Positions 4,028 to 47,783 are shown, numbered from the stretch's first letter. The stretch: DNA of 64,000 bases from an uncultured Candidatus Rokubacteria bacterium (GCA_963805625.1 CAWDVE010000012.1:134936-198935); one strand, 5' to 3'. The notes: a model not told the origin generated them from the sequence alone. Translations and numbers: made by a program.

Positions 4028-4072
4028 GCCGCCAGACCCTGTCGCCGCCAGACCCTGTCGCCGCCAGACCCT
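4028..4072 (+). repeat. 16-bp tandem repeat GCCGCCAGACCCTGTC x2.8
   Basis: Direct reading; abuts TTGACA at 4072. Confidence 0.9.
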
Positions 4073-4101
4073 TGACAGGGCGCGCGCCAGCCGCGCACCC
4101 T
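4072..4101 (+). promoter_or_regulatory. Putative sigma70 promoter upstream of dif-like site 1
   Basis: TTGACA-18-CACCCT; homologous to TTGACA-18-CACCAT at 44683-44712. Confidence 0.5.
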
Positions 4102-4140
4102 CGGGGCCAAGGGGGGATGTCTGCCAGCCCCCCTGGGGAA

Positions 4141-5276
4141 ACAGCTGAGAACGAGCTTTATTGATCTTTGACTATGTAATGGATACACGACTCACGTCCA
4201 CGGCAGGTCCGATGCGAGGATGCAGGACCACAGGAGGTGCTGGGACCCATGGACCCGACGGAACGACCGCCGTAGGTGGGCATCCAATTGACGAAGGTGT
4301 TCCGGTGCGCCATTGGCCAAGTCATGCTTGAACTTGGTCCAGACGAACTCGTCGGGATTCAGCTCGGGGGCATAGGCCGGGAACCGATGCACGTGCAGCC
4401 GCGTGTGTCGGGTCAAGAACGCCGTGACGTCGGCGCGCCGGTGAATCATGCCACCATCCCAGAGCAGCTCGACCGGTCCGCGGAGGTGCCGCAGGAGGTG
4501 GCGCAGAAACACCACGACCTCCGCCCCGGTGATGTTCACGGGGTGGACGTGCATGTACAAGCCCAGGCGGGCGCGCTGGGGGGACACCGACAGGGCAGAA
4601 ATCGCCGACAGCTTGTCGCGCGTGTAGCTGTGGCGTACCCGCGGCGTACACCCCACCGGCGCCCAGGTCTTCCGCATGTTCGGGATCAACAGGAAGCCGC
4701 TTTCATCGAGAAACACGAGGTGGGCCCCACGTCGGGCGGCGTTTTTTTATATCCGGCCACGTGTGCGTCTTCCAGTGTTCGATGGCCGCCTCGTCCCGCT
4801 GGCGCGCGCGCCGTTCGGGTTTCTGCCAACTCCAATGCAGGCCGTGCCGCAAGAGCTTCCACACGCCGACCGGACTGTAGCGTACGTCGAACTCCGCCTC
4901 GATCAGCGTGCCGATGCGCTTGAGCGTCCACAACTCGGTCGTGTGTCCGGCGGCCCGCGCGCCTTGGAGCAGCAACCGCCGGAGGCGCGCCTTCTGGGTC
5001 TCCGTCAACCGGGGCGGGCGGCCCGGCGTGGGCCGGGCGCGTAATCCGTTCCGCCGGTCGCGCCGATACGCTTGCTTCCAGCGCACGACGGAGCTCACGG
5101 CCGCCCGGACCAAGCGGGCGACTTCGCGATATGGCGTGCCCACCCGCAGGAGCGCGATAGCCCGGCGTCGACGCTTTTCCAGTTGCTCGGCCGTGCCAGA
5201 AGGTCTCATGCCGATCAGCATAGTGAACCACAGGCTAACCGTATGCATTCTTTAGTAAATGGTCAATATGTCGACT
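4141..5276 (+). other. dif/Xer-like site 1, interrupted by IS630 and abutting IS110
   Basis: Restored ACAGCTGAGAA-CGAGCT-TTATGTCGACT (4141-4160 + 5269-5276); right arm 8/11 identical to E. coli XerD arm TTATGTTAAAT. Confidence 0.65.
4161..5266 (-). mobile_element. IS630 family element, copy A1 (two ORFs joined by -1 frameshift)
   Basis: HTH ORF 4703-5248 + DDE ORF 4192-4716 (FLDESG..LNPDE); A7C slippery site ~4741-4748; TA duplication; imperfect IRs TTGATCTTTGACTA/TAGTAAATGGTCAA. Confidence 0.95.
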
Positions 5277-5299
5277 TCTATGAAGCGGCCCCCCGTGTC

Positions 5300-5560
5300 A
5301 AGCGATAGCGGCGTGTGTGGTGTCCCTCTCGTCCTCCCGTCCTAGGTCAGCGGTCCACGGCGATGGGACCTACGGTTCCCGCGAGGTTCAGTCATCCTTC
5401 TATTCGCGCTCGTCAGGGGCGAGCGGGGCTCGCCGGCGCATGAGGGGAGTCGAAGGGTGGGGACGCCATCTATGCAACGGCGCTCGAACAGCGGCCAAGT
5501 CGACATACGCGCTCACCCACCCGTCGAACCTGCGCGAGACCGAGGTGCCGCTCATCTCAC
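5300..5560 (-). ncRNA. Putative bridge/seek RNA of the IS1111-type element (boundaries approximate)
   Basis: Stem GGGTGGG/CCCACCC encloses a loop with TATGTCGACT (5498-5507) matching the target; a second hairpin CGCTCG/CGAGCG lies next to ATAGAAG (5397-5403) matching the element end plus core. Confidence 0.7.
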
Positions 5561-5710
5561 CGACGCGGACTATGCCTGACTTCTCAGGGCTCGGAGCCTG
5601 ACTCGGGTGAATCGCGATCGCCCAGTGGGCCCAGGACGCGTCCGTTGACCTGGACCGCTATCTGGGTATTCCCGAAATCGGCTATTTTCGCGTTCGCCAT
5701 GCGCCGCCCG

Positions 5711-6754
5711 TCAGACGGGAGCAGCCGCCTCGGCCACGTGGCGCGGCACGACCCGTGGAGTATACGTCGTCCCGTCGCGCAGCATCGCGTAAAGGATGCC
5801 GGCCAGGCGACGGGCCAGCGCGACGACGGCGATCTTCTTGCCACGGCGCGTGGCGATGCCCATGGCCCACCGCCGCAAGGCGACCGTCCGGGGATCACGC
5901 AGGCGCAGGATCGACACGGCCGCCTGGACGAGCAACCAGCGCATCCGGGTATTGCCAGCCTTGGTGATCCGCCCGCGTCGTTGACTCTCCCCCGAGCTCA
6001 GCTCCCTCGGGACGAGGCCGAGATACGCTTCCACGTCATGCGCCCGGTGGAAACGCCCGGCGTCGTCGATCGTGGCCACGAAGGCCGCCGCGGTCACCGG
6101 TCCCACACTGGGGACTGTCCGCAGGCGCTGGACTCGCACATCTGGGCGCGTGACGGCCTCGATCACCTCGTCCGAGTAGGCGAGCTGCTGATTGACGGGC
6201 CGCATCACCGCCAGCAGGGGCGCCACCTCCGAGAGCAGGCGGCCCGGCAGCGGCAGCGCCACGACGCGCCGGATGAACGTGTCCGCGCTCCCCGTGGGCA
6301 CGCGCCACCCGTGGCGGCGCAGAAGAGCCCGGATCAGGGCGATGTAGCCGGTGCGCGTCCGAACCAAGGCATCGCGCACCGCCAGGCGCCCCCGCACATG
6401 CCGCTGCGCGTCCGAGAGCCGATGCGCCGGGCGGTACGCCCCCAGCAGGCAGGCCTCCGCCAGCGCCCGGGCATCCCGCCGATCGGTCTTGACCTTCCGG
6501 GTCCGCGTGGCAGACATCGGCGCGAAGTTCGGGTCCGCCACCACGACCTCGTGGCCCAAGGCCTCAAGGCAGCGCGCCACCCACTCGCTCTCCGTTGAGG
6601 CCTCGACGAGGATCCGGGCTCGCGGCCGGCCGCCCAGCACCTCCGCGAACCGCTCGGGCTCGGTGCGGATCCGGCATTCGCTCAATTGGCCCCCCTCGCG
6701 GAGGGTGCAGATCTGGCTTTCCTTCTTGTGCAGGTCGATGCCAACATAGTCCAT
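5711..6754 (-). CDS. IS110 DEDD recombinase/transposase
   Basis: MDYVGIDLHK, KTDRRDA, YLGLVPRELSSG...ITKAGN motifs. Confidence 0.95.
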   Translation of the reverse strand: MDYVGIDLHKKESQICTLREGGQLSECRIRTEPERFAEVLGGRPRARILVEASTESEWVARCLEALGHEVVVADPNFAPMSATRTRKVKTDRRDARALAEACLLGAYRPAHRLSDAQRHVRGRLAVRDALVRTRTGYIALIRALLRRHGWRVPTGSADTFIRRVVALPLPGRLLSEVAPLLAVMRPVNQQLAYSDEVIEAVTRPDVRVQRLRTVPSVGPVTAAAFVATIDDAGRFHRAHDVEAYLGLVPRELSSGESQRRGRITKAGNTRMRWLLVQAAVSILRLRDPRTVALRRWAMGIATRRGKKIAVVALARRLAGILYAMLRDGTTYTPRVVPRHVAEAAAPV

Positions 6755-6875
6755 GGCTGGCCCCCTCGTGCGCCCGTGAGCGCGTGTTCGCTCAGTGGGG
6801 CACTGTATGCCACCACGTCGAGCTGCGGGTCAGCCGCTTCATCCCATCTACCCACGTTCCCCGGGAGGTGTGCCC

Positions 6876-7334
6876 GTGCCAGTCGATCGCACGTATGCAA
6901 CTGAGAACGATGCACAGCGGGAGCGGCTTCGCGCCCTTGTCCGGAGCCTCGGCGACCAGGACCTCGCGCGCCCCATGGAGGCCGGCTGGACGGTGGCGGC
7001 AGTCCTCGCGCACGCCGCCTTCTGGGATCAGCGGATTGTCGTCCTGCTCGACCAGTGGGAGCAACGGGGCCCCTCGTGGACCCCGCCCCTCGAAGTGGAG
7101 CGCGATGGCGACTGGATCAACGATGCCGCGAAGGCGCTCTGCCTGGCCCTCCCGCCTCGCGTGGCGGCCGACCTCGCCGTCTCGGTCGCCGAGGCGGTGG
7201 ATCGGCGGGTGGCCGCGGTGAGCGACGCCATCATCGAGGCGAATGCGCGGGCCGGCTCTCCGCTCAACTGGCACCGCGCGGAACACCGGCGCGAGCACCT
7301 GGACGAGATCGAGCGAGCGCTCCGCGGCGCCTGA
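6876..7334 (+). CDS. DinB/mycothiol-dependent maleylpyruvate isomerase-like protein
   Basis: GWTVAAVLAHAAFWD...HRREHLDEI; GGAGG RBS before GTG. Confidence 0.8.
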   Translation: MPVDRTYATENDAQRERLRALVRSLGDQDLARPMEAGWTVAAVLAHAAFWDQRIVVLLDQWEQRGPSWTPPLEVERDGDWINDAAKALCLALPPRVAADLAVSVAEAVDRRVAAVSDAIIEANARAGSPLNWHRAEHRREHLDEIERALRGA

Positions 7335-7368
7335 TCCCCCGATGCGCTTCTCCGGGCCCCCGGGGGAA

Positions 7369-8470
7369 ACAGCTGAGAACGAGCTCTACTAGTCAGTCCG
7401 ACACTTGGCGCATGAAAGAAGGAGCGAACCAGGCCGGTCGCGCTTGAATACCCGCCAGATCCACCTGGACGCGGCTTCGAAGCGATTCGTCTTTCCGCAA
7501 CGGGGTCTTGCTGACGCCTTGGCGCTTGAGGTGGTTCCAGACGAACTCGTCGGGGTTCAACTCCGGCGCATAGCCGGGCAGGAAATGCAGCTCGAGGCGA
7601 CCGGCAAGCTGCTGGACGTACTGCGCGGCTACGTTGGCGATGTGCGCGGGGTGGCCGTCGAGGACGAGGAACACGGCGCGCTTGCGCCCGCGCATGAAGT
7701 GCGTCAGCAACTCGACGAACCGTGGGGCGTTGAGCCGTTCGGTGTAGATCTCGTACCAGAAGGCGCCGCGGGCGTTGACGGCGGAGATGGCGCTCACGCT
7801 CTGGCGCCGGCCGCTCGTGGGGACCTCGGGCGTCTGCCCCCGCAGACCCCACGTCCGCCCGAGGACTTGGTCGGAACGGACCCCGGCCTCATCGAGGAAG
7901 AAGATCTTCGCGCCGACGCGCTTGGCCCGCGCGCGCAGGCGGGGGAACACCGCCGTTTTCCAGTGCTCGATCGCCACGGGATCGCGCTCGTAGGCGCGGC
8001 GCAACGGTTTCTGGGGCGTGATGTCCAACTCGGTGAGGAGGCGACCGACGGCGGTCACGCCCAGCCGCACGCCGAACTTCTGTGCGATCAGCGCCGCTAC
8101 AATCTGCCGAGTCCAGAGGCCAAAGTCGAAGCCGTACTGGCGCGGGTCCTTGCCATTGATCCATCGCCGGACCTGGAGCTTCTGGCGCGGCGTCAGGGCC
8201 GGCTGCCGCCCCGGATGTGTTCGCGCGGTGAGCGCCGCTGGGCCGCGTCGCCGCACCGCGGTCAGCCATTTGTAGATCGTGGTGCGACACAACCCATAGC
8301 CTTTGATGACGTCGCTCGGCGCTTCGCCTTCCTGCACGCGCCGCACGGCCATGCGCCGGATTGTCTCGGAGGTCTCGTGCGACAGGGTCCGCCCGTCGAT
8401 CCGCATAACCCTTCATATCACAATCCGAGCGCAGTGTAGCCTAAAGACAGGACTGGTTAGTATGTCGACT
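7369..8470 (+). other. dif/Xer-like site 2, interrupted by IS630
   Basis: Restored ACAGCTGAGAA-CGAGCT-CTATGTCGACT; same spacer as site 1. Confidence 0.65.
7389..8460 (-). mobile_element. IS630 family element B (single ORF 7393-8406)
   Basis: FFLDEAG...LDGHPAH...PELNPDE; IRs CTAGTCAGTCC/GGACTGGTTAG; TA duplication at 7387-88 and 8461-62. Confidence 0.95.
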
Positions 8471-8480
8471 ACCCCCAAGC

Positions 8481-8590
8481 TCAGGGTGCTTCGTTGAATG
8501 CCGCGGCGTGGTTGGTCGGCGCGACGTGCCCTCCTCCAGGAATAACAATGAGTCGCGACCCCGGAAATGCAGCGATGGGCCGTCTCCGCC
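8481..8590 (-). pseudogene. Alpha/beta hydrolase C-terminal fragment
   Basis: FPGSRLIVIPGGGHVAPTNHAAAFNEA resembles the catalytic-His region. Confidence 0.45.
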
Positions 8591-8685
8591 GCAAGCGCCG
8601 AGATGCACAGGAACCGCTAGCTACGGTTTCAGCCACGGTGAGCCCGTCGTGACCAAAATGGTGTTCGCTAACTATCGAAAAAGGC

Positions 8686-8730
8686 TGGCGCGCCTGGAGG
8701 GAATCGAACCCCCGACCCACGGCTTAGAAG
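8686..8730. repeat. att site: 45-bp duplicate of the tRNA-Arg 3' half
   Basis: TGGCGCGCCTGG...GGCTTAGAAG identical to 24600-24644; identity ends at the anticodon loop. Confidence 0.95.
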
Positions 8731-8918
8731 TGCGGGAAGGGGTTCCACGACCGCACGGGACCAAGTGCGACGGGGTATGACTGGACAAGGAGTTGCGTCG
8801 AATTCTGACAATACCGATGGTGACCGGACCGTACCTATTTCGACGCTGAACCGGCACTACGACCGGCACCGGCAGTCGCGCCAGGATAGGCGCATATGCC
8901 GCTGATCGAGGCCCCCCA

Positions 8919-8990
8919 CGGTCCGACCCCAACGGGGGGTCGGGGTCGCGACGCTGGGCTGTCGCTGGCAAATTTTGATTTCGCAAAAAA
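8919..8990. repeat. Conserved non-coding cis element (inverted copy at 60260-60329)
   Basis: ~70 bp identical apart from one indel. Confidence 0.9.
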
Positions 8991-9329
8991 GGGGCGAGAC
9001 CCTCCAGCTGGCTAGGTGCCAGGCCCCTCCTGTGATCCCCGCCAATGGGAGCATGTCCCCGCACGGTGCTCCGCGCGGTCAGCGCGTCCGCCTGGGTCTG
9101 CGCTTCGGCCACCGTCCCTACACCCGCGACGATGACGGCTCCTAGGGCGCTGAAGTCCTCCTGACTGTGGGGAGCCCGGAGCGTTTGCGGGCGGCCTCCG
9201 ACGTCAGTCGGCGCTTCCGGCGGGCCCCGATCTCGGTCGCGACCTGGCCCAGCTGCTCCGGCGGGAACAGGGCCCGCATCTCGTGCGCGCCCGTCTGCCA
9301 CCGCCGGACCCCGGGCACCGCCCACAGCC

Positions 9330-9410
9330 GGCCACAACACCGCTGCCCAGCAACAGCAGGCTTGAAGGCTCGGGGACAGAAAAGTACCAAACAATGCTGA
9401 CCCCCATCGT
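9330..9410 (-). pseudogene. Orphan PEP-CTERM sorting-signal fragment
   Basis: WYFSVPEPSSLLLLGSGVVAG. Confidence 0.6.
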
Positions 9411-9439
9411 CATTCCTCGCACTTTCCCATCCGACCTAT

Positions 9440-10384
9440 TCAGCGATGTTCCTTGGCCACGACGATCAATGGATACTGCCCATAGAGGCCAAAGAATCGC
9501 GGGAATAGGCTCTCGGCCACGAACAGCAGGCGAAGTGCGATGCGGACGAGAATTCCGCTCCCGAAACGCTGGAGGTTTCCGAGGGTGCGCCAACCGCGCA
9601 CGTCGTGACGGAATGGCCACTCCTTCCCAAAGAACCACTCCCGGCTATGGGCGTGGTAATAGAGTCCGGCCCCCGCAGTCTTTGGGGCCGGTGGCGCTCC
9701 GAGTCGATTCAGGAGACGGGACAGGCCCGCATTGAGGGGCGAGTAACCCCAAGAGTAGATGATCGCTGCCCTGCCCCCGGGTTTCAGCACGCGATGGAGC
9801 TCCGTGAATGCACGGCCCTGCTCGTCGGCCGGAATGTGATAGATCGTGTGGAATGACACGGCCGCATCGATCACGTCGTCCTGCAAAGGCAGGCGAGTTA
9901 GGTCGGCCAGGAGATACACGCCACGATCGCCGAGCTTCCGTCTGGCCTCGCGAAGCGCCTCGATCGAAAGGTCGAGGCAGAGGCGCCGCTCGAAGTGCTC
10001 GTGGAAGCGCATGTACTCCGGGTAGGGGATCGGGCCACTCGCGGCGTCGAGCAAATACCGCCCTCGCCGTGGAAGGAACTTTCGCACCCGGGCGATGCAG
10101 CGCGCTGTGTAAGACCACGATGACTCGCGCTGGTCGGTGAAGGTCTGCACCTCCTTGTATGAGGCACCGACCGATTGCCAGCCAAACGTGTCGTAGTACC
10201 GCTGGGTCGCCGCTTTCTCATCGCGAAGTGACGCGCCTTCGTCCAGCGTCGAAAGAAAGTCGACAATGCCGTCGATGATCCGGTAGCGATATTTGCCGCT
10301 CGCCGAAACGAGCACATCGCCGTCGAGTCTGAGCTCTTCTCCGGACACGGGGCATCGAAGGATCGAGATGACGTGCTGATTCAT
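9440..10384 (-). CDS. Class I SAM-dependent methyltransferase with Trm112-like N-terminus
   Basis: ILRCPVSGEEL...YRIIDGIVDF; LLDAASG; ADLTRLPL; LHRVLKPGG. Confidence 0.85.
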   Translation of the reverse strand: MNQHVISILRCPVSGEELRLDGDVLVSASGKYRYRIIDGIVDFLSTLDEGASLRDEKAATQRYYDTFGWQSVGASYKEVQTFTDQRESSWSYTARCIARVRKFLPRRGRYLLDAASGPIPYPEYMRFHEHFERRLCLDLSIEALREARRKLGDRGVYLLADLTRLPLQDDVIDAAVSFHTIYHIPADEQGRAFTELHRVLKPGGRAAIIYSWGYSPLNAGLSRLLNRLGAPPAPKTAGAGLYYHAHSREWFFGKEWPFRHDVRGWRTLGNLQRFGSGILVRIALRLLFVAESLFPRFFGLYGQYPLIVVAKEHR

Positions 10385-10637
10385 TGGCACCTCCCTTAGC
10401 GCCGTCGGTATACGCTTGGGTGCCCAGTCGGGAGCCACGGCCTTGTACGCGGCGATAGCACCGCGCATCATGTAGGTACACGCTCCAGGTCCCGTACTGA
10501 AGGCGCGGGCGTGATCGGATTCTTATGATAGCGCGTGGCACACCGGGCGAGAAGGACGAAGCCCGCCCCTCCGGTAGCCGCTGCGCTGTCGCTCGCCTCG
10601 GACTGCCAAATCGTAGCGGCGCTTCGACACACGCGGG

Positions 10638-10907
10638 CTATACTCCGTCCGCCCTGGGCCTCATGGGCCACGTTCTCGCGGCCGAAACCCGGGAACCGAC
10701 GCCCTCGACGTAGCCGAGTCGCCGCAGCTCCCCGAAGAACGCGCGGAGGCTCGGGTTTGCCGACTCCGTCATTTCGCCGCTCGGCGCCGCGGAGTTCACG
10801 ATGGCGATCCGGTACACCTTCGACGCCGGCTGCGCGGCGGCGGCAAGCGGCGCGGCGAGGAGGCCCATGGTGAGGATGGCCGGAAGCGTCAGCCGGGCGA
10901 GCCTCAT
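10638..10907 (-). pseudogene. Truncated ABC substrate-binding protein
   Basis: Signal peptide + AQPASKVYRIAIV...ELRRLGYVEG then diverges; paralog of 26270-27262. Confidence 0.7.
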
Positions 10908-11169
10908 GGGGTCCTCCCTCGTCTCGGAGTCCCCAGAGCAGTCTGGCCCCGCCGTCGGGGTGCCAGGGACCGGCGGCACACCTCGCAGCGCATCCTAGCG
11001 CATCTTCCGACACCCGCCTGAGCATCTCCGCCGGTGAAGTGACGGCCCTGGGGAATCACCGCCCCGGAGTCGGGACACGGTGGCCCCAGGCCGAGGCATG
11101 GGCGCCCCAGCCCCCGCGCCGGTAGGCCGACGGAAGGACTCTGCGATCTTCCGCCCACTGCGGCACTTA

Positions 11170-12475
11170 GGGATTGTCACGAAATAAATGTACCAGATAA
11201 TGGGATCGTGGCTGCTAGGGTATCCCATGGATGGTGGCCGAGCAGGCCATTCGACGACGGTTCCGGCTGATCGAGCCGCACCTGGACGAGCGGCTGCGCC
11301 GGCTGGTGGCCGCGGCGGAAGTCGCGGCCGCGGACAGCGTGTCGGCGGTGGCCCGGGCCACCGGAGTGTCCCGGCGCGCCATTCGCGCTGGGGTCACGGA
11401 GCTGAAGGCCCGTGGCGCAGCGGCCCTGGCCCCGGGGCGGATCCGGCGTCCCGGAGGCGGGCGCAAGCGCACGGTCGACCAGGATCCGACGTTGGTGACG
11501 GACTTGGAAACGCTGATCGAACCCACGACGCGCGGGGATCCGCAGTCCCCGCTGCGGTGGACCTGCAAGAGCGTCCGGCGCCTGGCCGCCGAGCTGACCC
11601 GCCAAGGGCCTCGCACGAGCCATCGGATGGTCGCCGCGTTGCTCCAGCAGTTGGGGTACAGCCTGCAGGCCAATCGGAAGACGATCGAGGGCACCCGGCA
11701 CCCCGATCGCAATGCCCAGTTCGAGCACATCGCCGCCCGCGTCCAGGCCACGCTGCGCCAGGGCCAGCCGGCGATCTCTGTCGATACCAAGAAGAAGGAG
11801 CTCGTGGGGCCGTTCAAGAATGCCGGTCGCGAATGGCGGGCCCACGGGCAGCCTCGGCCGGTGCGGGTCCACGACTTCGTGCAGCCGGAGCTGGGGCGCG
11901 CCATTCCCTACGGGGTCTACGATCTGGGCGCCAACACCGGCTGGGTCAGTGTCGGCATCGACCACGACACGGCGGCGTTTGCCGTCGCGAGCATTCGCCA
12001 CTGGTGGCAGGCCATGGGGCGCCGGGCCTATCCTCACGCCCGGCGGCTGCTGATCACGGCCGACGCCGGCGGGAGCAACGGCGCCCGCCGGCGGTTGTGG
12101 AAGGTCGAGCTGCAGAAACTGGCGGACCGCCTCCACCTGCCCATCACGGTGTGTCATTTCCCGCCCGGCACGAGCAAGTGGAACAAGATCGAACACCGCC
12201 TGTTCTCCTTCATCACTCAGAACTGGCGCGGCCAGCCCCTGCTCAGTCACGCGGTCATTGTGAATCTGATCGCGGCCACCACGACCACCACGGGCCTCCG
12301 CGTGCGGGCGCGGCTGGACACGACCCGGTATCCCTCGGGCCTCAAGGTCAGTCGCGCCACCCTGGAGGCCGTCCGCCTGCGGCCCGATCCGTTTCACGGG
12401 GACTGGAACTACACGATCCTTCCCACCCAGTCGGCAAAGCGATAGCATCTGGTCCATTTATTTCGCACCGGGTCC
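11170..12475 (+). mobile_element. ISAzo13 family element, copy 1 (transposase 11231-12445)
   Basis: ISVDTKKKELVG, PPGTSKWNKIEHRLF; IRs containing CGAAATAAATG; TTA duplication. Confidence 0.95.
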
Positions 12476-12627
12476 TTAGCGGATGGGCCCCGTGGACGAA
12501 ACCATGGGGCTCGGTCCTTGCATAGTCTCGCTCTTCGTGGATAGCGCGCGTTCCTCATAGCCTGCTGCGGCCATAGTGCATTCACATCAACGGGATGATG
12601 TGCCCGCACCGGCCGCTTGGGGGGAGC

Positions 12628-13179
12628 ATGAAACTGATAGCGACAATCGGACTCCTAGTCGTGATCCTCGTCCCCGGCGTAGCGCACGCGACTCCGCTCG
12701 TCGCCACGTGGGGATGGATCGGACTCTATGGGGTCGACACATGGGCCGACTTCGGCGGAGAAGAATTCTCCGTGTTCGTCTCCCAACCAAGTTCGTTTAT
12801 AAGCAACCCTTTCACGATCGCGATAGGCATGAACGGGATGGATGGAGATGGCGGACTCATTCATTTGTATTTCGGGTGGGGTGAGGTATACGGGGCGATC
12901 TGCTCCTCGTACGCGTTGGGGATCGGCGAGACATGCGGTTCGATGACGCTCGCGTATGATCCTCTCGCGACCCTGCCGGCGCCGTTCACCCTGACGGGGC
13001 ATTTGAACGTCGGCGATGGGTTTGACTTTGTGGGACAGGGCACGGTCCGTGCCGGAACGCCAAACCCATACCCATGGTTGCGGTACACAGTACCCGAGCC
13101 CTCGACGCTGCTCTTGGTCATCGCGTCGCTCGGCGCGCTCGGCGCGCTTCACGGCACTCGACGAGGTGCATCGCGGTGA
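12628..13179 (+). CDS. PEP-CTERM sorting domain protein
   Basis: Signal peptide; C-terminal VPEPSTLLL-TM-RR. Confidence 0.9.
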   Translation: MKLIATIGLLVVILVPGVAHATPLVATWGWIGLYGVDTWADFGGEEFSVFVSQPSSFISNPFTIAIGMNGMDGDGGLIHLYFGWGEVYGAICSSYALGIGETCGSMTLAYDPLATLPAPFTLTGHLNVGDGFDFVGQGTVRAGTPNPYPWLRYTVPEPSTLLLVIASLGALGALHGTRRGASR

Positions 13180-13210
13180 CGGCAGCAGCCCACTGTGGGA
13201 GGTGTGTCCG

Positions 13211-13828
13211 ATGAAGCTCATAGCCACGATCGGGCTCCTGATTGTGATCCTCGTCCCCGGCGTAACCCACGCGACGCTCGTTGTCACGGAAGGAAAGGTA
13301 AGCCTGGAAGTGACAGACAGCCTTGCCATCTTTGGCGACAACCTTTCGGGAGATTGGGAGGATGGGTGGTGGGGCGTGGAGCTGTCCTGGCCCTATCAGC
13401 AACCAGCGGACGACGGGACGCTGACGATGCAGATCCAGGGCAACGCCAGCGCCTGGGTCGATGGGACCGGGTGCTCCGCCGTACGGTTCCCGGGAGGCCC
13501 CCTCCCCGAGCCCGCCCCCTCCTGCGGCGTGTTCACGCTGACGCCGGCGCCGCCACCTGTCGAGAGCTTGCCCGTGCCATTCACCGCTACTGGGCATCTG
13601 AACGTCGGCGACGGCTTCGACTTTGTCGGCCAGGGCGTGATCGAGCGTGGTTGCCTGCTACCCCTGGGATGCACCCCCGGACCAGGACGTCCACTCTGGG
13701 TATATAGGTTCACCGTGCCCGAGCCCTCGACCCTCCTGTTGCTCGGAACGTCGCTCGGAGCACTCGCGATTCTTCAGCGACGAAAGAGAGCAGCACGGTC
13801 TCATTCATCGCCTCAACCTGATCGCTGA
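13211..13828 (+). CDS. PEP-CTERM sorting domain protein (paralog)
   Basis: Near-identical signal peptide; shared TGHLNVGDGFDFVGQG; VPEPSTLLL-TM-RRKR. Confidence 0.9.
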   Translation: MKLIATIGLLIVILVPGVTHATLVVTEGKVSLEVTDSLAIFGDNLSGDWEDGWWGVELSWPYQQPADDGTLTMQIQGNASAWVDGTGCSAVRFPGGPLPEPAPSCGVFTLTPAPPPVESLPVPFTATGHLNVGDGFDFVGQGVIERGCLLPLGCTPGPGRPLWVYRFTVPEPSTLLLLGTSLGALAILQRRKRAARSHSSPQPDR

Positions 13829-24599: not shown

Positions 24600-24676
<77 letters not shown>

Positions 24677-31454: not shown

Positions 31455-31508
31455 TTAGTTCTCGGTATGTTCGGCGCACTCGGTTATCCCGTTACATACA
31501 ACAAAATA

Positions 31509-32614
31509 TTGATCTTTGACTATGTAATGGATACACGACTCACGTCCACGGCAGGTCCGATGCGAGGATGCAGGACCACAGGAGGTGCTGGGACCCATGG
31601 ACCCGACGGAACGACCGCCGTAGGTGGGCATCCAATTGACGAAAGTGTTCCGGTGCGCCATTGGCCAAGTCATGCTTGAACTTGGTCCAGACGAACTCGT
31701 CGGGATTCAGCTCGGGGGCATAGGCCGGGAACCGATGCACGTGCAGCCGCGTGTGTCGGGTCAAGAACGCCGTGACGTCGGCGCGCCGGTGAATCATGCC
31801 ACCATCCCAGAGCAGCTCGACCGGTCCGCGGAGGTGCCGCAGGAGGTGGCGCAGAAACACCACGACCTCCGCCCCGGTGATGTTCACGGGGTGGACGTGC
31901 ATGTACAAGCCCAGGCGGGCGCGCTGGGGGGACACCGACAGGGCAGAAATCGCCGACAGCTTGTCGCGCGTGTAGCTGTGGCGTACCCGCGGCGTACACC
32001 CCACCGGCGCCCAGGTCTTCCGCATGTTCGGGATCAACAGGAAGCCGCTTTCATCGAGAAACACGAGGTGGGCCCCACGTCGGGCGGCGTTTTTTTATAT
32101 CCGGCCACGTGTGCGTCTTCCAGTGTTCGATGGCCGCCTCGTCCCGCTGGCGCGCGCGCCGTTCGGGTTTCTGCCAACTCCAATGCAGGCCGTGCCGCAA
32201 GAGCTTCCACACGCCGACCGGACTGTAGCGTACGTCGAACTCCGCCTCGATCAGCGTGCCGATGCGCTTGAGCGTCCACAACTCGGTCGTGTGTCCGGCG
32301 GCCCGCGCGCCTTGGAGCAGCAACCGCCGGAGGCGCGCCTTCTGGGTCTCCGTCAACCGGGGCGGGCGGCCCGGCGTGGGCCGGGCGCGTAATCCGTTCC
32401 GCCGGTCGCGCCGATACGCTTGCTTCCAGCGCACGACGGAGCTCACGGCCGCCCGGACCAAGCGGGCGACTTCGCGATATGGCGTGCCCACCCGCAGGAG
32501 CGCGATAGCCCGGCGTCGACGCTTTTCCAGTTGCTCGGCCGTGCCAGAAGGTCTCATGCCGATCAGCATAGTGAACCACAGGCTAACCGTATGCATTCTT
32601 TAGTAAATGGTCAA
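31509..32614 (-). mobile_element. IS630 element, copy A2 (near-identical to 4161-5266)
   Basis: Same 1106-bp element, TA duplication, one visible SNP. Confidence 0.95.
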
Positions 32615-32619
32615 TAACG

Positions 32620-39441: not shown

Positions 39442-39454
39442 ATGCCCTCCTTCT

Positions 39455-40075: not shown

Positions 40076-40091
40076 TCGAATTCTCGCATAC

Positions 40092-41241
40092 TTAGCCCGC
40101 AGTAGCTACAGCACGCTCGCGGTTCGTCGCTTGGCCGGTGCCACTCTGAGTGCCACTTGGCTGAATGCCGGTCCGCTCCAGCCGTTCCCCCCGGGCCAGG
40201 GCCTCTACCGCCTCCCGCTTGTGTCCAGCCGCCACGTGAGCGTACCGCTCGACCATGGCGAGGCCGCCCTTTGCCCCCCATCCCCCCAGGTCGCGGACGG
40301 TCAGCAGGTCCACCCCGGCCATGACCAGGCGCGAGGCAAAGGTGTGGCGGAGGGTGTGGAGCGTTACCCTGCCAGGCAGCTTCGCCTCCGTCGCCCACGC
40401 CGGGAAGCGATGGGTCACCTTCCGGCAGTCGGGGAAGATCAGAGGGCTGCCCAGGTGACGCGGGACACGCTCCAGCGCACTCAGCACCAGGCTCGATAGC
40501 TCGATGTGCCGGGGCCTCCCGCTCTTGGATGTGGGCAGCGTTAGCATCCCCCGCTTCGCGTCCACCTGGTCCCACCGGGCGGCCAGCAACTCTCCCCGGC
40601 GAGCCCCCGTGTAGAGTGCGACCTTGCAGAAGGCCCGATAGGGCTCCGGTATCACACTAAACAACTGGCCCTCTTCCTCGGCCGTCAGCCACCGGGTCCG
40701 CGTGTTCTCCTCGCGGAAGAGTCCCACGACAGACACGGGATTCCGACCGGCGAAGGCCCCCCGCCTGATGACCCGGTTAAACAGGTGGCGCAGACAGGCC
40801 AGGTGGCGATTGACGGTCGCCTTGGTCCGCTCCTCGGCCAAGGACTGCTTGAACCGTTCGACCGCCTCCCGGGGTGATTTCCGCCAGCGTCTTACCGGCG
40901 AACACGAGCTTGAGGCGATTGAGCCAATGTTCGTCGGTCTGGTGGCTCTTCTTGTGAGCCTCGCTCCACTCCTGGTATTCCTTCGCCGCGTCCTCGAAGA
41001 GCAGCGGCTTCGCGCTCCTGTCCAAGCGGGGACAGTAGTCCTTGCGCCGGACCTGCAGCCGCAGGCGGTGATGCTCCTCGATGGCTAAGCTCTTCGGCCC
41101 GACCTTCTCCCGGTGGCGGTGCCCGAGCGCACACTTGTCGGACACCCACCAGTCACCCAGGATGCCCCCAAGGAGTCGCTGGCTACCTCGCGGGTGGGGT
41201 CGGAAGAGCACGCCTCGGCGCTTACCGGGTGCCTCGCGCAT
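40092..41241 (-). pseudogene. Tyrosine integrase, frameshifted near 40870
   Basis: TGARRGEL, HTLRHTFASRL, MVERYAH; N-terminus in another frame. Confidence 0.88.
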
Positions 41242-41452
41242 GTTGGCCTCCTGTGCCTCTCGGTCGGTTGGGCGGGAAGAAATCGCGCACACCAATCCCT
41301 AGGGCATTTGCGAGCTTCTCCAGCATTGCCACGGTGGGGGACAGACGCCCCATCTCGATGCGGACCACAGTCACGTAGGACACTCCGGCCCGTTCAGCCA
41401 GGCCCCGGACTGAATAGCCCCGTCGCTCCCGCCAGTGGCGAAGGAGAATCAT
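41222..41452 (-). CDS. XRE-family HTH regulator
   Basis: Close paralog of 23261-23476. Confidence 0.9.
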   Translation of the reverse strand: MILLRHWRERRGYSVRGLAERAGVSYVTVVRIEMGRLSPTVAMLEKLANALGIGVRDFFPPNRPRGTGGQHARGTR

Positions 41453-41568
41453 TGGTCATGTATGGTAGCGTATCCGCATCCAGAGCGCAAGTATCCCTCT
41501 GAGACACGGGGCCCCTCGGGCGGGCCTCCGGCTCAGGTGGAAAGGGTGGCTCCTGGGGGCTCCGCTAG

Positions 41569-43162
41569 GAGCCTGTCGGAGAAAAGGCCTTTGAGTCAAC
41601 CGAGCCGCTGGTTAAGCTCGGGGCTATGAGCAAGACGTTTCGAGCGTACGACTTGAACCAGCGGTTGCTGTTGCCCCCGGATCTGCGGGAGTGGCTCCCC
41701 GAGGACCACCTGGCGCTGTTCATCAGCGACGTGGTCGACGAGCTGGATCTGTCAGCCATCGTGGGGGCCTATGAAGACGGGGATGGGCGGGGCCAGCCGC
41801 CCTACCACCCGGCGATGATGGTCAAGCTGCTGCTGTACGCCTACTGCGTCGGCCGGCCGTCGTCGCGGAAGATCGAGCGGGCGACGTACGAGGATGTCGC
41901 CTTCCGGATCCTGGCCGCCGACCAGCACCCCGACCATGACAGCTTGGCGGAGTTTCGGAAGCGCCACCTCGCCGCGCTGGCCGGGCTGTTTGTCCAGGTC
42001 CTTCGCCTCTGCCAGGCGGCGGGCCTGGTCAAGCTCGGGCACGTGGCCCTGGACGGCACGAAGCTCAAGGCCAATGCCTCGAAACACCAAGCGATGAGCT
42101 ACGGCCGGATGGAAGAAACGGAGCGGCGCCTGGAGCAGGAGGTGCAGGCCCTGCTGCGGCAGGCCGAGCAGGTGGATGCGGCGGAGGACGCCGAGTACGG
42201 CCCGGGCCGGCGGGGCGACGAGCTGCCGGCCGAGCTGGCGCGGCGCGAGAGCCGGCTGGCCAAGATCCGGGCCGCCAAGGCCGCGCTGGAGGCGGCGGCG
42301 AAGGCCCAGGCGGCCGAGACAGCGGCGAGCGGGCGCGCGAAGCTGGCGGCGCGGGAGCAGCGCGTGGGGAGCGCCAAGGGCGGGGTGCCGACGATTCCGG
42401 ACCCCGAGCAGGCGCGCCCCGCGCCGACCGCCCAACGCAACTTCACCGATCCGGACTCGCGCATCATGAAGGACGGGGCCACGAAGAGCTTCGAGCCAGC
42501 CTACAACGCGCAGGCGGCCGTGGATGGCCCCCACCAGATCATCGTGGCGTGCGGCGTGACGCAAGCGGCGGCCGACGTCGAGCAGTTCGTCCCGATGGTG
42601 GAGCAGGTCGCGGCGAATACCGGCCAGTCGCCCACCGCCGTGGTGGCCGACGCGGGGTATTTCAGCGAGAGCAATCTGACCGCGCCCAGCCTGGCCGGCA
42701 TTGCGCTGTACGTGCCGCCGGACCGGCAGACGCACGGCGGGATGCCGTCCGTGGCGGGGCGACCGCAGAGCCCGACCGCCGAGCAGATGCGTACGACGCT
42801 GCGGAGCGCCGCGGGCCACGCGGTCTACGCGCTCCGCAAGGCGATCGTCGAGCCGGTCTTCGGGCAGATCAAAGAGGGGCGCGGCTTTCGCCGCTTCTCC
42901 TGCCGCGGCCTGCCCACGGTGACGGCGGAGTGGGGGCTGATCTGCCTGACGCACAACCTGCTCAAGCTGTTCCGCGCCCGCGCCGGCCTGCAACCGGCCT
43001 GACGGGAGGGCTCGATGCGTCATCTGCTCTCTCTGCCACCTCGATTCCCGTCTGCCGGGCTCCGTCGCGGCCACTGGCCGGGGCGTTTCTCTCACGACCG
43101 GGTGTCGCCGACGCCCATTGGCCGCTCATGATGGTCTCGGCGGTCGATAAGCCGACAGGCTC
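41569..43162 (+). mobile_element. IS1182 family element (transposase 41626-43002)
   Basis: GQPPYHP, ALDGTKLKANAS, TDPDSRIM; IR GAGCCTGTCGG; CTAG duplication. Confidence 0.93.
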
Positions 43163-43203
43163 CTAGGCGACCCTCAGGGCCAACGGGCGGGCCCTGGGGC
43201 CCG

Positions 43204-43368
43204 TCAGCGCCCAGGCCGTACGAACGCCTCCAAATCCGTGACCCGAACCCGGGTCAACCGACCGACCTTCACGGCTCGGAGCCTGCGCTGACCCACCCAC
43301 TTCCTGACAGCTCCTTGTGAGCACCCCAGCAATGCCGCCGCGTCCTTGACACTCAATAGCCGCTCCAC
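43204..43368 (-). CDS. Excisionase-like HTH protein
   Basis: VERLLSVKDAAALLGCS...KVGRLTRVRVTDLEAFV. Confidence 0.88.
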   Translation of the reverse strand: MERLLSVKDAAALLGCSQGAVRKWVGQRRLRAVKVGRLTRVRVTDLEAFVRPGR

Positions 43369-43449
43369 CGTTTCGCCCCCCTTTGAATAGGTTGAATTTG
43401 GTTGATCCGCCCGCCCGACACACTTATCCAAGTGCCCGCCATCATTGAT

Positions 43450-44671
43450 TAAAATGCGCTCGGTTGATTAGCCGCGGTCCGCACGACGCTTAACGACCGG
43501 AGGCCCGTCTTGCCGCGTCCGATACGGGTGGCGCGGCAGTCGTGGGTGGGGCTCCTGCGCAAGGGGCGGCGCGTGCTCGTGGACGCGGTGGCCCAGGTCG
43601 ATGGCCCGCGCGCCGCCACGCTGCGGGCGCAGTTCGTGCCGCCCGCCGAGGAGGCCGAACCGCGGGACGACGGCGCGCTGCCGCGCGAGAGCGAACGGAC
43701 GGCGGCGCTGGTAGCGGCGGTGGCCGACGTGGCGGACGCGGCAGTCCAGGCGCGGGTGGCCCAAGTGCAGACGCTCCTCCGCGGCGAGGGCGATCGAGTG
43801 GTGAGCTTCGACGATCCGGACGCGCGGGGGGGGTATAAGGCGGCGGACAAGCCCTTCCTGGGGGACAAGGCGCACGAGAGTCTGGATCCGGACAGCCGCC
43901 TGATCACCGCGGTGGACGTGGTCCCAGGGAATGCGAACGAGGCCGTGCGCACGGACACGGTGCTGGCCAGCGAACCGACGCCTCGCACGCCGGGGGCGGT
44001 GATCATCGGCGACGGGCTGTACTCCAACGCGACCACCGTCGCGCAAGTCGAGCAGGCCGGGGGCCGCCCCTGTTTCAGCGGGCTGAAGGCCGAGCGCGTG
44101 AGCGATGCCTTCACCAACCGGGCCGAGACGGACCAGATGGAGTGCCCGGAGGGGAAGCGGTCGGTGGGCAAGGTCCGGGTGACGCAGGGCGATCTCTATT
44201 ACTTCTCGATGCGGGACTGCGGACCGTGTCCCCGGGCGGTCACGTGCCTGACCCGCGGGGAGCAGGTGGGGCGAGCGAAACGGCGCCGGCGCGTGTATCT
44301 GTCCGACGTGCGCAAGGCGCGGGTCGTGGCGGGTGAGGCGGGCCGGGTGTGGCGGAAGACGCACGCGAAGCTGCGGCCCCGAATCGAAGCGAAGTTCGAC
44401 GAGCAGATGAACCGGCATGGGCTTCGCCACGCGCGCTACTGGGGCCTGGCCAAGGTCACCGCCCAGGTCCTGCTCAACGCCCTCACGGTCAACGCCAAGC
44501 GGGCGGTCAAGCTCCTGGCGCGCCGCCCTCAACCGCCCGATCCGGTCCCGATCCTGGCGTAAAGGCGCGAGCGCAGACACGGAGCCGACGGAGCGCGCCA
44601 GGCCGAAGCCCAGGGGCGGACCCGTCGCCGCGGGAATGCGCCCGTCCCGGCCGCACTTTGTCAGCGGCCTC
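43450..44671 (+). mobile_element. 5'-truncated IS1182-like transposase (43510-44562)
   Basis: VSFDDPDAR, CPEG..CxxC, RIEAKF..HGLRHARYWG. Confidence 0.7.
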
Positions 44672-44682
44672 CGGTGCCGTTC

Positions 44683-44712
44683 TTGACACCGTCCGCGCCG
44701 GCCGCGCACCAT
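44683..44712 (+). promoter_or_regulatory. Putative promoter upstream of dif-like site 3
   Basis: TTGACA-18-CACCAT. Confidence 0.55.
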
Positions 44713-44761
44713 CGAGGTCGAGTGGGTCAGGGCGGCCTTCGTCCGCCAGCCCCCGGGGGAA

Positions 44762-44789
44762 ACGGCCGAGAAGAGCCACTAGGTCGACT
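44762..44789 (+). other. dif/Xer-like site 3 (uninterrupted)
   Basis: ACGGCCGAGAA-GAGCCA-CTAGGTCGACT with the GGGGAA and ACCC flanks of sites 1 and 2. Confidence 0.65.
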
Positions 44790-44927
44790 ACCCTCCCGGC
44801 CCGGACCGCTGGAGGGTAACGCTCCAGTGACGAGCTGGGTCACGCTGCGCTGTCTCTGGAAAGGAGCGACCGCTCGCGAGGCCGTCCGAAGCGTGGAGGC
44901 ACGCTCTGGTGCTGTAGAGTTGGAAGC

Positions 44928-46393
44928 ATGGAGCCGGGGGAGCCTTCGCGCGGCTGCTTCTCCTGCGACCTTTCCGGGCCCGGAAGGGACCTCTCGCACT
45001 TCTGGGAGCACGTGATTGGCAGCGACCACGCCCCGGTCGCGCTGCGGGCCGACTGGCAGGCCCAGCTCCGGCGGTGCCGGCGCGAGTTGGGCCTGTGCGC
45101 GGTGCGCTTTCACGGGCTGTCGGCACGTTCATCGTCCACGACCAGGCGCCACTCTATTCGTTCTTCAACGCCGACCAGATCGTGGACTTCCTGCTCTCGA
45201 TCGGCATGCGGCCCTTCGTGGAGTTGAGCTTCATGCCCGCGGCCCTCGCGTCGGGCGACAGGACCGTCTTCCGCTATCGCGGCAACGTCACCCCACCCAT
45301 CGACTACGGAGCGTGGGGGGAGCTCGTCCGCGGGCTCGTCGCCCACTGGAAGCAACGCTACGGAACCGAGGAGGTGGAGCGCTGGCACTTCGAGGTCTGG
45401 AATGAGCCTAACCTCGAGGACTTCTGGGCAGGGACGCAGCAGGACTACTGGCGGCTGTATCGCCACGCGGCGCAGGCCGTCAAGTCGGTCGATCCCTCGT
45501 TCCGAGTCGGTGGGCCGGCCACGGCCAGGAACGAGTGGATCGCCGAGTTCCTCGACTTCTGCGAGCGGGAGGCCGTGCCCGCGGACTTCGTCAGCACCCA
45601 TCACTACCCCACCGACGCGCTCGGGAACGAGAAGGACGACACCGAGAGCCCGCTTTCGCAGGGTCGCCGCGGCCTTCTCCGCGACCAGGCGCGCAGAGCG
45701 CGCCAGGAGGCGGGCCAGCGGCCGCTCCTGTACACCGAGTGGAACACCTCCTCGAACCCGCGCGACCGCCTCCATGACCAGCCCTACGCCGCGGCCTTCA
45801 TCGTCAAGACCGTGATGGAGATGAGCGGGCTGGTCGAGAGCTACGGCTTCTGGACCTTCACCGACCTGTTCGCCGAGAACTACTTCCCCTCGGTTCCCTT
45901 CCACGGAGGCTTCGGCCTCCTCAACCTCCACGGGATCGCGAAGCCCTCCTACCGTGCCTTCGAGCTGCTGCACCGGCTCGGTCGCCGCGAGCTGCGCGTC
46001 GAGGGCGCTCATCCGACGGTGGACGTCTGGGTCGTGCGCAAGGGCCAAGCGCTCACCGTGCTGCTCACCAACCACGCTCTGCCCCGCCACTCGATCGCGA
46101 CCGAGTCGATCGAGGTCCGGCTGGGGAACGCGCCCGCGCCGCACGGGGCGCGGATCGAACGGATCGACGAAGACCACGCCAATGCCAGGGTCGAGTGGCT
46201 CCACATGGGGAGCCCCGAATACCTTCGGCGCGCGGACATCGAGCGCTTGCAGGAGGCCTCGGTAATGACGACGCAGAGCTGTCCGCTCAGCTACGCCGAT
46301 GGCACGATCGTCTTGCGGGTCGAGCTTCCGCCGCACGCCGTGGCCGCGGTCACGCTGGAGCTGGCCGCCGGCGTTAGGAGAGCGAGACGGTGA
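44928..46393 (+). pseudogene. GH39 beta-xylosidase, frameshifted near 45120
   Basis: VRFHGL | ..RPFVELSFMP, FEVWNEPN, YTEWN. Confidence 0.85.
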
Positions 46394-47703
46394 GGATCTC
46401 GCGCTCAGACCAGCGCTACCTCGACAAGCTGCAGCGCGACACATTCCAGTACTTCTGGAAGGAAGCCGATCCTCGAAGCGGCCTTGTGCCCGACAACACG
46501 AGCAAGGGTGCGCCCTCGAGCATCGCGGCCGTGGGACTGGCTCTCGCCACCTACACGGTCGGTGTCGAACGTCATTGCATCAGCCGCAAGCAGGGCATCG
46601 AGCGGACGCTGGCGACTCTGCGCTTCTTCGTCGAGAGTCCCCAAGGGCCTCAGGCCGACGCCACCGGCTACAGGGGCTTCTACTACCATTTCCTCGACAT
46701 GCGGAGCGGACGCAGGGTGTGGAAGTGCGAGCTGTCCACGATCGACACCACGATCCTGCTCGCCGGCGGGCTCACCGCGGCTCGGTACTTCGACCGGCCG
46801 GCCGCCGCGGAGCGGGCCATCCGCGACCTGGCCGAAGAGCTGTACCGGCGCGCCGACTGGTCGTGGGCGCTCAATGGTGGACCCACGGTCTCGCACGGGT
46901 GGCGACCGGAGAGAGGGTTCATCCGTTACCGGTGGCAGGGCTACAATGAAGCGCTGATCCTGTACGTCCTGGGTCTGGGCTCGCCGACGCACCCCTTGCC
47001 CGAATCGAGCTATCCCGCCTGGACGTCGACGTACGTCTGGAAGAGGGTCTACGGACACGAGTACCTCTACGGCGCGCCGCTCTTCATCCATCAGTTGTCG
47101 CATCTCTGGCTCGACCTCCGCGGGATCCAGGACGATTACATGCGCCGCAGGGACAGCGACTACTTCGTCAACAGCCGCCGAGCGACTCACGTGCAGCAGC
47201 AGTACGCGGTCCGCAACCCCAGGAAGTTCGAGGGCTACAGCGCCTGTTCGTGGGGGTTCACGGCCAGCGATGGGCCCGGTCCGGCACGCCGCCGCATCCG
47301 CGGCGTGGCGCGCCTCTTCCACGCCTACAAGGCCCGCGGCGTGCCCTGGGGCCCCGACGACGGGACGCTGGCTCCGTGGGCGGCGGCGGCCTCGCTGCCG
47401 TTCGTACCGGACGTCGTCCTGTCCACGCTGCGCTACTTCGACGAGGCCTTTCCCGAGATGGTCAGCCGGTACGGCTTCAAGTGCAGCTTCAATCCTACGT
47501 TTCCCGCACGGACGGCCAAGGGCTGGATTTCGAAAGGCTACTACGGCCTCGACCAGGGCCCGGTCGTCCTCATGATCGAGAACCAGCGCTCGGAGCTGAT
47601 CTGGCGGCTCATGCGCGGGTGTCCGCACGTCGTGAGGGGGCTGCAACGGGCGGGGTTCGACGGAGGCTGGCTGGCCGCCACGACCCCGAGGTTGGCATCA
47701 TAG
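46390..47703 (+). CDS. Glucoamylase-like/GH144 family glycosidase
   Basis: SSIAAVG, GFYYHFLD, GYNEA, DQGP. Confidence 0.85.
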   Translation: MRISRSDQRYLDKLQRDTFQYFWKEADPRSGLVPDNTSKGAPSSIAAVGLALATYTVGVERHCISRKQGIERTLATLRFFVESPQGPQADATGYRGFYYHFLDMRSGRRVWKCELSTIDTTILLAGGLTAARYFDRPAAAERAIRDLAEELYRRADWSWALNGGPTVSHGWRPERGFIRYRWQGYNEALILYVLGLGSPTHPLPESSYPAWTSTYVWKRVYGHEYLYGAPLFIHQLSHLWLDLRGIQDDYMRRRDSDYFVNSRRATHVQQQYAVRNPRKFEGYSACSWGFTASDGPGPARRRIRGVARLFHAYKARGVPWGPDDGTLAPWAAAASLPFVPDVVLSTLRYFDEAFPEMVSRYGFKCSFNPTFPARTAKGWISKGYYGLDQGPVVLMIENQRSELIWRLMRGCPHVVRGLQRAGFDGGWLAATTPRLAS

Positions 47704-47755
47704 GCCGGACCACCGGCCACAGGTGCTAACATCCGCCCCTTGGGGAACGGGGGAA

Positions 47756-47783
47756 ACGGCCGAGAAGGCTCCATACGAGGAGC
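47756..47783 (+). other. dif/Xer-like half site 4 fused to yihY sequence
   Basis: GGGGGAA-ACGGCCGAGAA then degenerate GGCTCC-ATACGAGGAGC. Confidence 0.55.

Follow-up and report, generated by a model that had tools for sequence, protein, structure and literature searches.

Dif-like sites and insertion sequences in the window

The window analysed here is a stretch of 64,000 nucleotides (nt) from an uncultured Candidatus Rokubacteria bacterium (GCA_963805625.1 CAWDVE010000012.1:134936-198935), and our subject is a family of short sites within it that resemble dif, the target of the recombinases XerC and XerD (XerCD), being made of two 11-base arms around a 6-base spacer. An earlier note, made from the sequence alone, had described four such sites as one candidate integron-like cassette system of 44 kb. 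Sites 1 to 3 are confirmed, site 4 retains only its left half, and the single system resolves into two separate loci: sites 3 and 4 lie 36 kb from sites 1 and 2, behind core genes (rph, smpB, the tmRNA gene and three tRNA genes) and within a 4.2-kb duplication, so that the four sites represent two loci of a dispersed family. Loci, genomes and contigs are denoted below by our own handles, with the prefixes L, G and C, respectively.

Site 1 opens with a head (4061-4160, plus strand) comprising a promoter-like TTGACA at 4072, a leader and a C-run/G-run, followed by the dif-like left arm ACAGCTGAGAA (4141-4151), the spacer CGAGCT (4152-4157) and TTA, the first three bases of the right arm. The remainder of this arm, TGTCGACT, is found at 5269-5276 (plus strand) and the hexamer ACCCAC at 6850, the site being split by two insertion sequences (IS). 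An IS630-family element (4159-5268, minus strand) sits at the TA of the right arm, with the TA duplicated at 4159-4160 and 5267-5268, and has a second copy in another target at 31507-32616; an IS110/IS1111-type element (5277-6849, minus strand; transposase 5711-6754) is inserted at the CT that ends the arm. The DinB-like cassette (6850-7388, plus strand) consists of ACCCAC, a gene with an MDMPI_N domain (6876-7334) and the left part of site 2. The latter is a headless mini-end (7356-7388, plus strand) that begins at the C-run and continues with the left arm (7369-7379), a spacer identical to that of site 1 (7380-7385) and CTA, where a second and different IS630-family element (7389-8462, minus strand) occupies the same TA position. 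Beyond it, the segment 8463-8730 (plus strand) holds the right-arm remainder TGTCGACT (8463-8470), ACCCCC and a flank reaching a tRNA-Arg 3' fragment (8686-8730); a like fragment lies on the other side of sites 1 and 2, at C12:131866-131909. We also observed that a 16-nt unit is repeated three times in tandem immediately 5' of the site 1 head (4024-4071), and that this array is shorter in public contigs. The tRNA-Arg fragments are part of tandem islands at tRNA-Arg, which three 3' fragments mark (window 8686-8730 and 24600-24676; C12:131866-131909 and 122799-122842; more on C17).

At the second locus, site 3 has a head and an intact site (44668-44795, plus strand), with a promoter-like TTGACA at 44683, a leader, the left arm (44762-44772), the spacer, the right arm (44779-44789) and ACCCTC; the intact site spans 44762-44795, and the left side is truncated by an IS1182-like element. 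GH39 and glucoamylase-like (PF10091) genes (45074-47703, plus strand) separate it from site 4 (47735-47772, plus strand), in which a C-run/G-run, the left arm (47756-47766) and the spacer are present, the right arm and hexamer having been lost; 3 of the 11 bases of the right part are shared with the host dif. The GH39+GH144 stretch had been put forward as a cassette. It belongs to the 4.2-kb duplication (window 44668-48841, equivalent to C10:1733479-1737665), which continues for about 1 kb past site 4, and for this reason sites 3 and 4 are at most candidate borders of a mobile unit. As claimed earlier, the window contains no xerC or xerD gene; it does hold two phage-type integrase genes, beside tRNA-Arg and tRNA-Leu.

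The non-coding region of the IS110/IS1111-type element (5277-5710, downstream of the transposase) includes a 10-nt match to the right arm at about 5498-5507. Six distinct insertions of this group of elements were found, of which five occupy the CT of a clear site and the sixth lies in a degenerate one, and the copy in genome G019 carries a variant, TGTGTTGACT, equal to the right-arm form common in that genome, so that it covaries with its target. By analogy with the seekRNAs of IS1111 elements and with attC-targeting elements, the 10-nt match is predicted to be a target guide; ISKpn4 and ISPst6 are IS1111-type elements aimed at attC (PMC11187229).

Relation of the site family to transposon ends and to the host dif

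A matrix scan of the genome, as proposed in the earlier note, returned 15 matches above 20 bits, against one in the shuffled genome, and searching with a profile built on the longer element yielded 25 matches at E<0.01 (five of them being sequences used to build it), against none after shuffling. The genome thus holds about 25 related pieces of a dispersed family, many of them decayed solo copies. The arms are conserved, as had been stated; the spacer, claimed to vary, is not free, being the same in sites 1 and 2 and having a family consensus, GGGGCT. Neighbouring sites elsewhere often differ at one to three spacer bases. Upstream, conservation reaches as far as about 250 nt, and beyond the 28-mer it extends for another 6 nt: it runs through ACCCTC in 42 multi-copy sites, about three of which are probable chance matches, whereas in 17 dif sites it ends at base 28. 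Beyond base 34 it is weak or absent, and headless sites all start at the C-run, roughly 45-55 nt from the end (judged by eye). A looser pattern occurs in 43 of 61 related genomes (one control match), mostly once and with GATAA in the left arm, where multi-copy sites have GAGAA. Both dif arms are retained across the order and in other phyla.

Outside Rokubacteria, exact-pattern matches include chance matches within genes and probable true dif sites, and only L097 and L098 are tied to a transposase. A 20-copy array at L111 was rejected as a set of sites, being made of CRISPR-like repeats that match the pattern by chance; this planctomycetotal array (L111:2500-5850) has at least 20 repeats with a period of about 74 nt, the repeat resembling the left arm and spacer pattern. 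A phage origin was likewise discarded, a single match in viral contigs having no element context. A structured RNA, or a folded site of the attC type, might be suggested by the promoter-like sequence upstream and by the short C-run/G-run. We regard this as scarcely credible: Rfam matches are confined to tRNA and tmRNA, which leaves a riboswitch or other RNA without support, and the four pieces tested had folding z-scores of +1.65, +0.74, +1.28 and -0.24, with no folding signal of the attC kind. The RNA structure that the earlier note had named as an alternative is therefore not supported.

The heads of the window align with the 3' ends of transposase elements of the ISCR type. In L074 and L224, and likewise in L228, the whole head and site lie behind an intact Y2_Tnp/Zn_Tnp_IS91 gene, the L074 and L224 proteins scoring above the Pfam cut-offs for PF04986 and PF14319; the same arrangement of a site behind a transposase gene is seen in L097 and L098, which are acidobacterial and deltaproteobacterial loci. 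The associated transposase is 41-44% identical to those of ISCR1 and ISVsa3 and its best NCBIfam match is ISCR clade Ia; the scores against the curated ISCR/IS91 family models NF052416 and NF033538 were 384 and 92 bits, below the respective cut-offs of 925 and 125. In relatives, ISCR-like transposase genes are followed after 80-260 nt by the site end, and the origin end (oriIS) of four ISCR elements taken from plasmid records is 221-233 nt behind the stop codon. The ISCR oriIS aligns without gaps to the spacer, right arm and following hexamer, with 16 of 28 bases shared by ISVsa3 (by eye). Among 30 transposase loci of the order, 22 reach the C-terminus, 18 of which have at least 200 nt of downstream sequence, the site pattern being present in seven of these 18; no upstream site was found within 700 nt of the transposase in any of 21 loci. 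These results make it highly probable that each site represents the terminal 45-130 nt of an oriIS end belonging to an ISCR/IS91-type element. The free-standing sites of the pdif kind postulated in the earlier note are at odds with this assignment.

The outer border of the end is best seen at L234, where a site abuts a truncated ABC-transporter gene and homology to the intact paralogue picks up again precisely where the hexamer stops, a position that marks the end of the element in a new target; one such junction is clear and two are weaker. In L097, L117 and L119 the dif-like core is found apart from, and upstream of, the oriIS motif, for which reason it is an added module, and it was absent from all four enterobacterial and pseudomonad ISCR ends examined. 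The left ends of the elements are variable, and in the genome under study the transposase survives only as fragments. Upstream of the transposases in L114-L137 we noted a conserved GTATCCATC...GGCATTG, 50-130 nt before the start, which resembles GGCAATGTC before ISCR genes and may be a terIS or a promoter.

The host dif was placed at C10:379400-379427, where it is present in single copy with flanks common to 11 of 12 other family loci; the dif pattern was matched in 15 of 21 family genomes. A polarity switch of the FtsK orienting polar sequences (KOPS) occurs at 375,488 on C10, about 4 kb away. Scans of C10 from 430 to 550 kb for a dif at the GC-skew maximum found none, the 522-535 kb element there being a prophage-like island integrated at a tRNA gene; the position at 379 kb was then given by KOPS polarity and synteny. 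The genome encodes one FtsK gamma domain and two Xer-like proteins (about 304 bits; cut-off 329.6), XerC at C10:550736-551635 and XerD at C10:422219-423127. The site consensus shares 17 of 22 arm bases with the host dif (8/11 and 9/11) in the 11-6-11 layout that had been recognized earlier, a level reached by just two 28-mers genome-wide, dif itself and one site. The sites are multi-copy and dispersed and do not correspond to the single dif of the terminus, whose locus is unoccupied and syntenic. That the site core mimics the host dif is very probable from these comparisons.

Cassette behaviour, position of exchange and possible mechanisms

Related Candidatus Rokubacteria carry direct-repeat arrays, mostly with one gene per unit. 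Neighbouring sites less than 5 kb apart are direct repeats in 16 of 17 pairs, a sample that counts the duplicated GH39 locus twice and misses the site 1-2 pair of the window; the direct-repeat arrangement described in the earlier note is thus borne out. A single gene is present in 11 of 16 units and 17 of 21 genes are co-oriented with the sites, locus L235 having four sites with one gene each. The cargo includes GNAT, glyoxalase, cupin, RibD, SDR, YCII and DinB proteins. A 97% identical copy of the window's DinB-like gene is present in L069, where another head precedes it and a RibD unit follows, and the order is swapped between L069 (DinB-RibD) and L107/L239 (RibD-DinB, with an 82% identical DinB relative). 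A DinB-free allele, the empty site that had been suggested as a check, exists in genome G003 (L072), where the flank of site 2, present in only one of 20 family genomes, adjoins a site from which an IS of the same kind separates it. These observations support that the DinB-like gene, bracketed by sites 1 and 2 as first described, behaves as a cassette.

Contigs from public soil runs cover the DinB unit from 6848, one of 546 nt corresponding to 6848-7385, and two runs show an IS-free right arm ahead of the unit. In L213/L221 the 3' site of DinB is joined to 16 nt of its own 5' flank, like a tandem cut short. As separate observations, run X11 has at window 7358-7388 site 2, 18 letters and then a second site copy, with no gene between them, and in the genome under study nitrile hydratase genes are flanked by a head and, downstream, by a degenerate site (L024:12122-14750; G000:C10:2017120-2019720).

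No tyrosine recombinase was found consistently beside heads or arrays in the loci examined. A dedicated integrase was sought among 24 Phage_integrase matches genome-wide, none of which is tied to heads; the two integrases of the window reach 55 and 45 bits, against an integron-integrase cut-off of 265, and no intI adjoins the arrays, in agreement with the proposal of recombinase-free cassettes. Free-standing pdif-like sites on the chromosome that never derived from a transposon, or sites served by a Xer-like integrase of their own, would account for the dif likeness, the direct repeats and the exchange within sites described below. Such sites are nevertheless very improbable in view of the homology to transposase 3' ends and ISCR oriIS, the extra hexamer, the fixed left boundary, the want of a consistently adjoining recombinase in the loci examined and window integrases so far below the cut-off; the link to a transposase already largely refutes them.

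The distribution of site halves indicates where exchange takes place. Three different left parts (window, L069 and L213/L221) are followed by the hexamer ACCCAC ahead of DinB, ACCCCC precedes the site-2 flank both with DinB (window) and without it (L072), and the spacer keeps company with the left arm. When 49 sites were grouped by left-arm type, mismatch within and between types was 0.17/0.38 at spacer bases 12-14, 0.33/0.38 at bases 15-17 and 0.255/0.253 in the right arm; for the 40 intact sites, obtained by setting aside nine that bear indels or are decayed, the spacer values were 0.14/0.41 and 0.31/0.35. Linkage thus drops after spacer base 14 and exchange is bounded to bases 15-32; genome of origin explained none of the residual linkage. 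By analogy with the reactions of IMEX elements (see below), this collapse in mid-spacer fits a crossover by Xer on the side of XerD, with replication resolving the mismatched spacers.

The reading towards which we lean, with modest confidence, is that a transposase seeds the sites and that crossovers within them, likely made by host XerCD, move genes from one to another. The site end behind ISCR-like transposase genes of relatives, alignable with ISCR1/ISCR2 oriIS and dif-like over its last 34 bases, would be the starting material. One-ended rolling-circle transposition, as suggested by the behaviour of IS801 and by one clean junction, would drop such ends into new DNA, yielding full ends of about 130-250 nt with outward promoter-like sequence and mini-ends of about 45-55 nt from the C-run, each joined to the target after the hexamer. 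Pairs of such ends in direct repeat are indeed observed around one or two genes, and a given gene recurs between different ends and in different order. Exchange would fall within the right arm or within the 6-bp spacer's right half, with XerCD as the likeliest catalyst, so that a cassette would carry the right arm and hexamer at its 5' side and the left arm and spacer at its 3' side; the head promoter would drive the first cassettes. In this genome the transposase now persists only as fragments, and IS insertions have interrupted sites 1 and 2. Concerning the movement by host Xer proposed in the earlier note, halves are exchanged near the spacer as that idea would have it, and the XerCD role is inferred only. 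Shuffling of genes driven by XerCD is, on these sequence patterns, a little more probable than its contrary.

A route through the transposase only is the alternative to XerCD, and one that we consider unlikely though worth weighing at length. The HUH enzyme would start at one oriIS and stop at the previous one, the gene being released as a single-stranded circle and reinserted beside another end, and the dif likeness would serve another use, such as multimer resolution, or be a relic. It would agree with the homology of the ends to ISCR oriIS, with the de novo junction after the hexamer in L234, with the residual linkage of whole sites and with the type-A sites of genome G009, which have two derived right-arm bases in common despite lying in three different flanks; spacer mismatches would need no explaining, and capture in a two-oriIS 'sandwich' is reported for ISCR28 (PMC12772301). 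It predicts, however, that the hexamer goes with the upstream unit, whereas ACCCAC goes with DinB and ACCCCC with the site-2 flank; nor does it readily accommodate a fall in linkage from about 65% to about 10% across the spacer, assembly with no intact transposase and the retention of both arms.

Passive relics are, to us, improbable. Mini-ends would here be spread by one-ended transposition, and genes would be moved only when 45-bp repeats serve ordinary recombination; this has been proposed for IS801 fragments, which have been argued mainly to supply homology (PMC3189936). The many decayed solo copies in the genome would suit this explanation, and the data are compatible with an exchange at any position within the 18 nt of right part that the sites share. 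The repeats are, however, very short and mismatched, units hold one gene and genes are co-oriented, both dif arms are conserved across the order and in other phyla, and the predicted guide of the IS varies with the right arm, suggesting a lasting target.

A number of results weigh against seeding by the transposase followed by XerCD exchange. With respect to the transposon end, 11 of the 18 transposase ends have no site pattern, some being visibly degenerate, intact elements have a site at one end only, and a generic sigma-70 scan of the heads was negative, the promoter being a sequence motif only. As to the dif likeness, single sites 1 to 4 match the host dif at 15, 14, 15 and 11 of 22 arm bases, levels that 68 and 574 28-mers of the genome reach, so single sites do not exceed chance; of the two signals proposed for locating dif, KOPS agreed, and the GC-skew maxima, at 490-521 kb, are more than 100 kb from it and in disagreement with KOPS. 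Most of the more distant DinB-like relatives have no flanking site. The circles anticipated in the earlier note did not appear, no circle junction being present in contigs of eight runs, which cannot show absence, and the L213/L221 junction has a 4-nt right-arm gap and just 16 nt of DinB flank. Regarding the exchange itself, the types were defined on the left arm, and the differences at one to three spacer bases between neighbouring sites are a hindrance to the full XerCD reaction. Right-arm linkage, absent in the set of all sites, appears weakly in the 40 intact ones (0.205/0.223, 26 of 1000 permutations), together with that of the hexamer (0.18/0.24, 0 of 1000), although these permutation counts overstate significance because kin are not independent; this residual linkage to left-arm type indicates that many sites travel whole. 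The linkage pattern is also compatible with ordinary short-repeat recombination.

Carried to its full extent, seeding by a transposase combined with XerCD exchange would describe an integron devoid of integrase, a picture that we advance tentatively and that falls somewhat short of probable. A rolling-circle family with its oriIS fused to a dif mimic would have its transposase scatter promoter-bearing heads and 50-nt mini-sites, turning neighbouring genes into cassettes that host XerCD would excise and stack in arrays across Rokubacteria, and probably in other soil phyla, while an RNA-guided IS1111-type element would be programmed to parasitise the site.

Comparison with known systems and minor observations

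The elements share with ISCR1 and ISCR2/ISVsa3, of the IS91 family, the transposase identity, the oriIS motif and its distance from the stop, and variable left ends. ISCR1 also has an outward promoter on the oriIS side (PMC6218425), to which only a promoter-like motif corresponds here. Unlike ISCR elements, the proteins here are below the family cut-offs, a dif-like core is present and arrays of ends lacking a transposase make up most copies. Transposition of IS91 elements begins at oriIS and is often one-ended (PMC13181058), and by such transposition IS801 throws off mobile right-end miniatures of 229, 360 and 679 nt (PMC3189936), which resemble our sites in being right-end fragments. In ISCR28 a gene is held between two oriIS, the nearest reported case (PMC12772301, citing Yuan et al.). 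In contrast to both, the ends described here measure 45-55 nt and have a fixed left boundary, multi-gene arrays, exchange within the site and a dif mimic.

The Acinetobacter pdif/xrs modules, which include chromosomal islands of dif modules, have sites targeted by dedicated IS and are presumed to depend on host XerCD (PMC12907356; 10.1101/2022.12.17.520857). Common to both systems are one or a few genes between extra dif-like sites, arrays and dedicated IS on the sites; Acinetobacter has C/D and D/C pairs, whereas here 16 of 17 pairs are direct and the site belongs to the end of a rolling-circle transposon. The IMEX, mobile integrative elements that make use of Xer (CTX, VGJ and TLC), build direct-repeat arrays by successive integrations and have mismatched overlaps resolved by replication (10.64898/2026.06.12.731946). 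They also bear a dif-like site on an element related to rolling-circle replication, but differ in that our sites are dispersed and not at dif, carry single-gene cargo and occur once per intact element, with no activator gene identified. With integrons the arrays share a promoter-like motif, a first site, co-oriented one-gene cassettes in shuffled order, cargo such as GNAT, glyoxalase, cupin, RibD and DinB proteins and an IS1111-type element aimed at the site, the integron integrase and the folded attC being absent.

Literature searches that joined ISCR/IS91 ends, oriIS or rolling circle with dif-like or Xer sites, mostly outside subscription journals, found no such paper among those listed, and a search for IS91 in Rokubacteria found nothing. 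How cassette sites first come to lie beside genes is unexplained for integron attC and for Acinetobacter pdif, and the transposon end would be a concrete source, making cassette birth testable with a transposase, XerC, XerD and a 50-nt sequence. If true, a gene-collecting system in an abundant soil group has been overlooked by integron finders, and ISCR elements, known from the spread of resistance, are linked to Xer recombination.

Three further features were observed. An adenylate/guanylate cyclase-AAA-TPR gene at window 425-3541 belongs to a family of more than 12 copies in the genome, often close to islands. At window 12595-13828 there is a tandem pair of paralogous open reading frames with signal-peptide-like starts and VPEP-type C-terminal repeats, presumably of the PEP-CTERM kind, with no Pfam match at 1e-5. 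Finally, G000:C10:1-140000 has a G+C content of 49-53%, against about 69% elsewhere, which would be consistent with a chimeric join, a contaminant or a very large island.

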